From positions 1-4,761 of the IMG/VR virus record IMGVR_UViG_2529292888_000007: a DNA stretch of 4,761 bases; one strand, given 5' to 3'. Source of the stretch: a virus (Duplodnaviria > Heunggongvirae > Uroviricota > Caudoviricetes). Made by a program: the position numbers. This document shows, in pieces, positions 3,001 to 4,761 of the stretch. How positions within the stretch are numbered: position 1 is the first letter of the stretch; every line of letters begins with the position of its first letter.

Positions 3001-4761
3001 CAAGCCTCACTCCCAGCATCATCAGCATGCCTTCAACAATCCCCTCCGCTTTGTGAAGGCGTTTACCTATACAGGTGTCAGAGCACCCATGTTTCCGTGC
3101 CAGCGCCATGAACGTCCCCCCCAGCACGTAATAATCAACCAGCAAGTCATGCAGATCGCGATTGTTCCGGTAAAGGCGGGCTATACACCCGCATATCACC
3201 ATCGCATCATCGTCACAGCACTGCGGGCGTGATTTTACTTTTTCGGGGATCAGTCCCTTAAATCCGGCGGCAATGGGTGACCAGGTCACATCCTCATGGT
3301 TATTTGCCGCCCATGCCCCCCAGCACTCAAGAACCTGCCGGATATCACGCATCAGTATCTTTACCCCATCCGCGATGAACCATAAGAACACCGTTGACAA
3401 TAGCGTGTCTTTTTCCTTCTTTATCGCCAGTGTATTTTCTGACCGTGTTGCGACTACAGTTCAGTATTCTGGCTACCTCGGTCTGATTTTCATATGCCTC
3501 AACGAGCATGTCAGGAATGGTTTTTACTGTGAACGTCATGCGGCCTCACTTCTGCTGTTTCGCAGGTCTTTAAGTTTCTGCTGATACTTCGCCTTGATGG
3601 CCCTGCACTCTTCGATAGTCCAGCGATGGCGGTTATGGTTTGATTCGATTTCGTCTACTGCTTCCTGCCCGATTCGGTTAATCAGTTCGACGCGATAGGG
3701 AACGAGATTTCCGCTTTTATGCTGGTTGCACACCACGCATTGCTTGTGAATATTGCGTTCATCAAATCGGAGTTGAGGTGCCGCAGCAGTTGTCCGGTAA
3801 TGTCCGGCATCCCACTGAGCAGACATGAGCGTTCCGCACGAGATACATGGTAAGTCGCGGTCTCTTTCTCTGATGAAGGCGTTTACGGCTTGTTGGGCTT
3901 GTTTAATCCAGTAACTGCGGGGCTTTAAGGCGAGTTTTCGAATCTTCAGTTTATCTTTCTGTTTCTGCTCCTCTCGTCGTCGTTTCTTCTCTGCTGCTTT
4001 TTCCGCTTTTTTTCGCTGTTTACTTTGTAGTTTGAGTGCTAACTGAGTTCCGTGTTCCGGGCAGCACCACCACTGATTTGAGAATGCCGGGTGAAACCAT
4101 TCCTTGCATATTTTGCATTTCCTTCGCGCTGGTTTAGCCATCGTCTTCTTCCTCGTACATTGAGCTATTCGGATCGCTCATCAGTTCTGCACAGCAGTGC
4201 TCACACACGTGAACTTCCAGCACATGCAGCTTCTGACCGCAGTTAGCGCACGTTAAAGCCCGCTCGACGCTTTCTTTCTGGTATTGAAGGGATTGGGATG
4301 GGCTAAGCATGGCTTTCACCATTAAAAAGTCGCTTGTAAGCATCAATGTCTCGTTTTGCTTCACCGAGCTTTCGTCTTAATTCCATGTTTTCTGATTCAA
4401 GCTTTTCCATGTCTTGTTGGTATCGATCGCGGTGTTCTTTCCATGCTTTTTGATACGCCTTCATGTATGTCATATTGGCCTTTCTCTTTGCCTGACGAAC
4501 TGCGTGGTGGTTTTTCACAAACCAGTCAGGGTCGTTAAATGCTGCTCTGGCGCATGTATACCAATAATTTGTTGCCTCCCTGTTTAGCCAATAAATACTG
4601 ATAAATGGCAACCGGATAGACACCATTTTTCGTTGTGACTCTTTCTCGCCAAACATGTGGCCTTTTTTGATGCTAAGTCCAAATCCAGGTTGAATTAAAA
4701 GCATTGTCATTTCCTCGCACGATGTCTTAGCCACCGGATATCCCACAGGTGAGCCGTGTAA

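Follow-up and report, generated by a model that had tools for sequence, protein, structure and literature searches.

What is the gene that separates ninE from ninF in the early region of a Shiga toxin-converting phage, and what might its product do? We addressed this question in a stretch of 4,761 nucleotides from a tailed phage (Caudoviricetes; positions 1 to 4,761 of IMG/VR record IMGVR_UViG_2529292888_000007), which is referred to at its full length as the window and whose positions are used throughout. The recognizable genes of the window all lie on the minus strand and comprise stx1B, stx1A, Q, ninH, ninG, ninF and the open reading frame (ORF) under study. Positions 3500–4761 (1262 bases) are 100% identical to the Stx1-converting phages VT1-Sakai (AP000400) and NC_004913/AP005153. 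An original prediction had placed this ORF at the position that lambda gives to ninE and had described it as open to the window edge. We find that it is, almost certainly, a complete gene of 133 amino acids (aa; positions 4704–4303, minus strand) of the uncharacterized PHROG 1511 family, and an optional cassette between ninE and ninF in the nin region of a Stx1-converting lambdoid phage. The gene is already catalogued: it equals VT1-Sakai H0039 and HK630 gp55, makes up most of "ORF B69" of NC_004913, and is a "hypothetical protein" in all named database copies. It is, in other words, an ordinary and known object whose family has been given no function.

When the frame was translated from the window edge to its stop, positions 1–133 of the 133-position phrog_1511 profile aligned to residues 20–152 of the product (E = 2.4e-86). 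The HK630 annotation gives the same 133-aa ORF, and all homologs share the starting methionine, including those at loci with no ninE upstream. Because of these three agreements, the start is, as read from sequence alignment, the ATG at positions 4704–4702, giving a protein of 133 aa rather than 147 or more and a coding sequence (positions 4303–4704, minus strand) that ends in a TAG at positions 4305–4303. This ATG closes the segment GAGGAAATGACAATG (positions 4702–4716, minus strand), which also contains the Shine-Dalgarno motif GAGGA (positions 4716–4712, 7 nucleotides (nt) upstream of the ATG) and, within an ATGA, the TGA stop of ninE (positions 4709–4707, with the ATG 2 nt past it). A second in-frame ATG, at position 4710, overlaps the ninE stop as that ATGA and would add only Met-Thr. 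The start given for "ORF B69" in NC_004913.3 is a GTG 14 codons upstream, with a 40-nt overlap with ninE, for which the family alignment gives no support.

These boundaries bear on the suggestion that the protein may be much longer than 147 aa: the family start shortens it instead, and positions 4705–4761 fall outside the gene. It is true, as had been noted, that the frame meets no stop up to position 4761, but in the full phage a TGA closes it 16–18 nt past the window edge (3983–3985 in locus L001), and closure directly upstream is what the original prediction had itself named as telling against it. The frame seems open to the edge because positions 4707–4760 (minus strand) hold, in a different frame, the 3’ part of ninE (its last 17 codons and the TGA, annotated in the 100%-identical NC_004913), which encodes the C-terminus YTAHLWDIRWLRHRARK. 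The complete protein encoded directly upstream is a canonical NinE (Pfam PF05322, E = 7e-44), and the gene studied here therefore does not hold the ninE position of lambda but an extra slot between ninE and ninF. That the ORF could be a NinE that has diverged, or could form the C-terminus of a much longer protein starting past the window, had in its favor the lack of an upstream stop inside the window. The chance of this is practically nil, since the closure of the frame and the upstream NinE match refute it, and since all homologs begin at the same methionine even where ninE is missing. The unlikeness to NinE remarked on by the original prediction holds, as Pfam scans of the protein gave no NinE match.

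Is the gene real? Both the end-to-end match to PHROG 1511 and the pattern of substitution say so, in agreement with what had been presumed. In unsaturated pairs of homologs, the ratio of nonsynonymous to synonymous substitution rates (dN/dS) was 0.10–0.28, and the proteins of the E. coli and Klebsiella copies are still 72% identical even though synonymous sites between the two have reached saturation. Length and start are kept in Escherichia, Salmonella, Klebsiella and Yersinia phages, in Citrobacter, Pluralibacter and Biostraticola genome records, and in metagenomes. Of 5426 complete E. coli genomes, 392 (about 7%) carry the gene, as do 58 of 50,697 phage records. At 90% identity, its homologs fall into 81 clusters, from Escherichia, Salmonella, Klebsiella and Citrobacter, and an exhaustive hidden Markov model (HMM) search added 57 more distant representatives (50% identity, E ≤ 1e-3), the family spanning about 125–140 aa. 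Wherever a distant relative could be traced, its surroundings were phage-like, and among the relatives recovered by this search and by the searches of large databases none was named or carried a Pfam domain.

Broken copies do exist, as would be expected if the ORF were a chance reading frame or a pseudogene without a product: the ORF of phage H-19B (AF034975, 9225–9624) matches in two pieces, indicating a frameshift, and the database proteins P0060, P0078 and P0063 are frameshifted versions whose N-terminal part comes from another frame; other database copies are truncated. These frameshifted copies are sequencing errors or decaying copies. Against a chance ORF stand the purifying selection, the retention of the protein where synonymous sites are saturated, the length and start conserved across genera, and intact ribosome-binding and coupling signals, and we give that explanation essentially no credence.

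The coupling signals lie at both ends of the gene. At its 3’ end, the stop codon and the ATG of ninF (positions 4310–4308) overlap within the 8-nt sequence ATGCTTAG (positions 4303–4310, minus strand), which bears out the translational coupling to ninF that had been proposed. Translation would be chained to the neighbors on either side, with the ATG just past the ninE stop and behind GAGGA, and with the stop codon lying over the start of ninF. The same two segments mark the borders at which genes are exchanged. In lambda there is nothing in the slot, as ninE (42090–42272) directly overlaps ninF (42269–); P22 has ninX there. At the 80 IMG/VR loci whose NinF is closest, the gene whose 3’ end meets the start of ninF was of the NinX type in 49, of the family studied here in 24, and a C5 cytosine methylase (316 aa; Pfam PF00145, E = 4.5e-14) in three. 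The sequences of P22 and the Stx1 phage coincide as far as GAGGAAATGACAATG, are unrelated beyond it, and coincide again from ATGCTTAGCCCATC onward; identity thus ends at the cassette ATG and resumes at the ninF ATG, so that both mosaic joints fall exactly at start codons. One and the same ATGCTTAG terminates P22 ninX, the gene of the Stx1 phage and the Klebsiella homolog.

The shared position and the identical flanking joints might suggest that the gene is simply a homolog of P22 ninX. At the sequence level this was rejected: BLASTP returned no alignment between the two proteins at E ≤ 100, hhalign gave a probability of 0.3%, and the two belong to separate families (PHROG 444 and PHROG 1511), leaving such homology hardly any chance.

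Further observations concern the slot itself. It is a precise exchange site (positions 4303–4310 and 4702–4716 of the window; 998 and 1329 of locus L017; 5392 of locus L005). The C5 DNA methylase, too, ends at the ninF start. In a Pluralibacter metagenome-assembled genome (2989–4730 of locus L013), our gene, a very acidic ORF of 75 aa and a C5 methylase lie together upstream of ninF, and alternative occupants can therefore also be stacked.

Within the nin region, genes form a tightly packed and translationally coupled chain (PMC8022706); in lambda they are delayed-early and belong to the pR transcript, and phages from which they are deleted still form plaques (PMC10695390). Positions 3900–4761 showed nothing resembling a promoter or a terminator. 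The gene is therefore a cassette in the coupled nin chain. We consider it very probable that it lacks its own promoter and terminator and is transcribed within the N-antiterminated delayed-early pR operon that runs from O/P through the nin genes to Q and stx.

Does the gene travel with a particular partner? NinF follows it in E. coli, Salmonella and Klebsiella, and in Klebsiella prophages the order is a NinB-like gene, our gene, and then NinF-YbcO-RusA. In two divergent prophages (54–56% identity) it comes after a NinE-like ORF and is followed directly by NinG, and in PY54-like phages it is coupled to a preceding Lar-like gene, with Dam and DinI nearby. Plasmids of about 110 kb encoding RecA, an SPFH protein and RepB carry the homolog alone, without nin genes, as in the E. 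coli O104:H4 FDAARGOS_348 plasmid (109,945 bp; 3501–3890 of locus L101; about 82% DNA identity), and these look like phage-plasmids. Of 485 E. coli matches, 24 are on plasmids. Neighbors thus differ between carriers, and a constant gene partner was rejected.

We then considered what the encoded protein looks like. It is probably built of three parts, according to AlphaFold2 models and family conservation: a basic N-terminal domain of four strands and a helix with no recognized fold, a conserved basic helix, and a zipper-like coiled coil of about 40 residues. The N-terminal domain (residues 1–57; positions 4534–4704, minus strand) has a net charge of about +5. The full-length model, computed with 25 relatives, has strands at residues 2–6, 11–16, 26–31 and 35–40, a helix at 42–57 and a single long helix at 59–128. 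Its mean predicted local distance difference test score (pLDDT) is 76.7, being highest over residues 91–120 (91–94) and lowest over residues 51–80; when residues 1–66 were modeled alone, with 55 relatives, the pLDDT was 88.7. The Trp/Tyr-rich middle that had been pointed out is indeed there (NYWYTCARAAFNDPDWFVKNHH, residues 46–67 of the 133-aa protein), and so is the heptad-like C-terminus, the last third being charged with a clean a/d heptad pattern.

The most conserved segment of the family, residues 58–76 (DPDWFVKNHHAVRQAKRKA; positions 4477–4533, minus strand), would form the basic start of the long helix and carries the motif D-P-x-W-h-h-x-N-x3-V-R-x-A-K/R. Over 43 diverse relatives, the best-conserved residues were W61, N65, V69, R70, A72 and K73 (hence DPxW..N...VRxAK), with W61 and N65 conserved in at least 93%, V69 hydrophobic in 98%, and R70 and K73 basic in 79%; in the close family, N65–R74 is invariant. 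This same segment is the least confident part of the full-length model. The leucine-zipper-like coiled coil (residues 88–127; positions 4324–4443, minus strand), to which heptad conservation, AlphaFold2 and weak PDB profile matches all point, has W88, Y95, L102, L109, A116 and Y123 at its d positions and R92, M99, N106, L113, I120 and F127 at its a positions. The a/d hydrophobicity is kept across the family, and Asn is frequent at an a position (Asn106, or Asn113 in relatives); an a-position Asn in such a zipper favors a parallel dimer. The family is strongly basic, with a mean isoelectric point of 9.5 (above 8.5 in 42 of 43 members); the positive charge is found in the N-terminal domain (+4.1) and the basic helix (+2.7), the coiled coil being near neutral.

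None of the searches attached a function to this architecture. Profile searches of Pfam, NCBIfam, PADLOC and PHROGs returned only coiled-coil noise and unannotated PHROGs, and the sole PADLOC match was LmuB over the coiled coil (E = 0.0096, 12.4 bits). PDB searches with the single sequence, the close-family profile, the wide-family profile and the C-terminal half gave only zippers and coiled coils, at non-significant E-values, and BFVD gave no function for the protein. No significant structural superposition was found with the four-strand-plus-helix, single-stranded DNA-binding folds of the PC4, Pur-alpha and Whirly type. The profile search proposed earlier accordingly assigned no well-characterized nin-region family, PHROG 1511 itself being uncharacterized, and with no characterized family assigned by profile or fold searches the gene is still, as had been said, the least explained coding sequence of the window. 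A weak match to an Rz-like spanin (phrog_1327, E = 0.025) was rejected: the predicted N-terminus consists of β-strands in a soluble domain and lacks the hydrophobic stretch, some 20 residues long, of a membrane anchor, and the gene is part of the early nin operon, upstream of Q, and not of the lysis cassette.

A basic helix leading into a zipper raises the question of whether this could be a true bZIP-type transcription factor, with a continuous basic helix that grips DNA. Zippers of C/EBP, GCN4, PAP1 and Fos recur among the best PDB sequence matches, the zipper register aligns with that of C/EBP alpha down to the a-position Asn, and the local sequence NHHAVRQAKR resembles, in our own reading, the NNIAVRKSR of C/EBP. 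In bZIP proteins such as GCN4 and C/EBP, the basic region has the form N-x7-R, with the first zipper Leu 18 residues after the Asn and with the Asn and Arg on the a/d/g face. An alignment to C/EBP alpha that preserved the register put these two invariant residues on A76 and Y84. The conserved N65 motif lies about 12 residues farther N-terminal, away from the zipper, is shifted by 2 residues in heptad phase, and is on the wrong face of the helix. The bZIP matches in the PDB were all at E = 0.05–5; neither bZIP_1 nor bZIP_2 was among the eight Pfam families listed for the query or the best 25 of 68 families in a scan of 25 members (E ≤ 10), weak matches having been filtered; and in bZIP proteins no β domain adjoins the basic helix on its N-terminal side. 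Spacing and helical phase led us to reject bZIP membership, which we regard as most improbable; the protein looks like a basic helix plus zipper that is not a member of that family.

What, then, might it do? Our tentative proposal is that it may be a non-essential, dimeric, nucleic-acid-binding accessory protein. We propose this because of its basic charge, the conserved basic helix beside a zipper, the DNA-transaction genes around it (NinB/Orf, Dam and C5 methylases, Lar, NinG/RusA and the Fis-like NinH), and the precedent of NinH, a dimeric nin protein that binds and bends DNA (PMC7166090). The zipper would pair two copies of the basic helix and N-terminal domain on the DNA or RNA of phage or host early in the lytic cycle, and the location of the most conserved residues in the least confidently modeled helix would fit a segment that becomes ordered on its ligand. 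A bolder and rather unlikely extension is that the family may represent an unrecognized class of phage DNA- or RNA-binding protein, in which a new, small β/α domain and a conserved basic helix are dimerized through a zipper, a prokaryotic-virus analog of basic-zipper proteins. If this were true, such a class would act in the early lytic development of Stx phages and other temperate enterobacterial phages, possibly by modulating recombination or replication, transcription through the nin-Q-stx operon, or a host defense.

Several points weigh against nucleic-acid binding by a dimer. The N65..K73 motif falls on the b/c/f face of the heptad and is, by 12 residues, too distant from the zipper to make a fork of the bZIP type; a basic charge is also seen in many small phage proteins that bind no nucleic acid; the g/e charge pairs of the zipper are only half favorable for a homodimer, making a hetero-partner possible; the AlphaFold2 predictions are of monomers only; and literature searches on ninX, ninF, the nin region and anti-defense yielded nothing on this gene, including no expression or phenotype data.

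The g/e pairs are also what might be expected of a counter-defense or host-takeover protein, whose coiled coil or N-terminal domain would bind and neutralize a host factor, such as a restriction or defense component or another coiled-coil protein. The neighborhood can be read in the same way: the slot exchanges accessory genes and has an orphan C5 DNA methylase as one alternative occupant, the partner in PY54-like phages is a restriction-alleviation (Lar-like) gene close to Dam and DinI, the nin region of the Stx1 phage likewise has Lar-like and Dam genes, and the cassette moves between lambdoid phages, PY54-like phages and the plasmids of about 110 kb. However, the nin region mixes many functions, which weakens any association by neighborhood, and the protein is strongly basic, unlike the acidic DNA-mimic anti-restriction proteins. 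PADLOC gave no match beyond coiled-coil noise, which counts for little since its models describe defense systems rather than anti-defense proteins. A counter-defense role is the main rival to our proposal and a little less likely than it. We infer both this role and nucleic-acid binding from protein anatomy and gene neighborhood. For the explanation built on nucleic-acid binding as a whole, that is, for identity, expression, architecture and function together, our confidence stands slightly above the midpoint.

Some database copies of the ORF are interrupted by deletion or chimera junctions, which cluster in about 20 nt at positions 4490–4520 (codons 61–67). In two defective prophages (4180 of locus L010 and 4162 of locus L011), the DNA to the left is wholly unrelated, and both join exactly at position 4507, while at least four other database proteins (P0065, P0068, P0069 and P0070) have unrelated N-termini joined 1–6 codons earlier. 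The part kept in every case is the downstream half of the gene together with ninF. The plus strand at positions 4503–4510 reads CGTGGTGG, which agrees with Chi at 6/8 positions, keeps the TGGTGG core, and is so oriented that it would face RecBCD coming from the side of the deletion; a Chi-like role for CGTGGTGG at the junction cluster is a post-hoc idea.

Of the neighboring genes, ninF (positions 4134–4310, minus strand) encodes a 58-aa protein with a four-Cys, zinc-ribbon-like pattern (Pfam NinF, E = 3.2e-12; phrog_672, E = 1.9e-37) and is the downstream coupled gene. Its stop overlaps the start of ninG (positions 3536–4141, minus strand; Rap junction endonuclease, Pfam NinG, E = 4.7e-89) by 8 nt. 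The ninF gene (4452–4628 in locus L001) is missing from the RefSeq annotation NC_004913.3, which also lists several implausible ORFs on the opposite strand, such as b67 and b68. Elsewhere in the window, downstream of stx1B, positions 897–1106 (minus strand) are a full-length match to the small RNA STnc100 (Rfam RF02076; 176.7 bits, E = 2.4e-41).

The gene matters for where it sits and for what it encodes: it lies in the delayed-early operon that leads to Q and stx1 of Shiga-toxin phages, and its N-terminal domain is confidently predicted with no structural relatives. Knowing its role would fill a blank in the early biology of Stx phages, and would tell what the ninE-ninF slot, occupied in turn by NinX, the PHROG 1511 protein and a C5 methylase, is used for.

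Among known systems, the closest are the members of PHROG 1511 themselves (VT1-Sakai H0039, NC_004913 ORF B69, HK630 gp55 (YP_007112593) and PY54 ORF53), which belong to the same family by full-length HMM match and occupy the same nin-region position in E. coli and Salmonella phages; we note no difference from them. P22 NinX (phrog_444) resembles the protein in its slot, in the GAGGAAATGACAATG and ATGCTTAG joints and in being a coupled nin-operon gene with no assigned function, but it has 112 aa rather than 133 and no detectable sequence relationship. The eukaryotic bZIP proteins (C/EBP, GCN4 and PAP1) share the succession of a basic helix and a zipper with an a-position Asn, in the register of C/EBP alpha, whereas the phage protein does not have the invariant Asn and Arg at their fixed spacing and has an extra N-terminal β/α domain. 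The analogy we favor is lambda NinH, a Fis-like mimic of nucleoid proteins (PMC7166090). NinH uses a helix-turn-helix, which is not predicted here, and the two share no sequence similarity, DNA binding being only proposed for our protein; yet both are small nin proteins, ours presumably non-essential like NinH, which acts as a homodimer on DNA.
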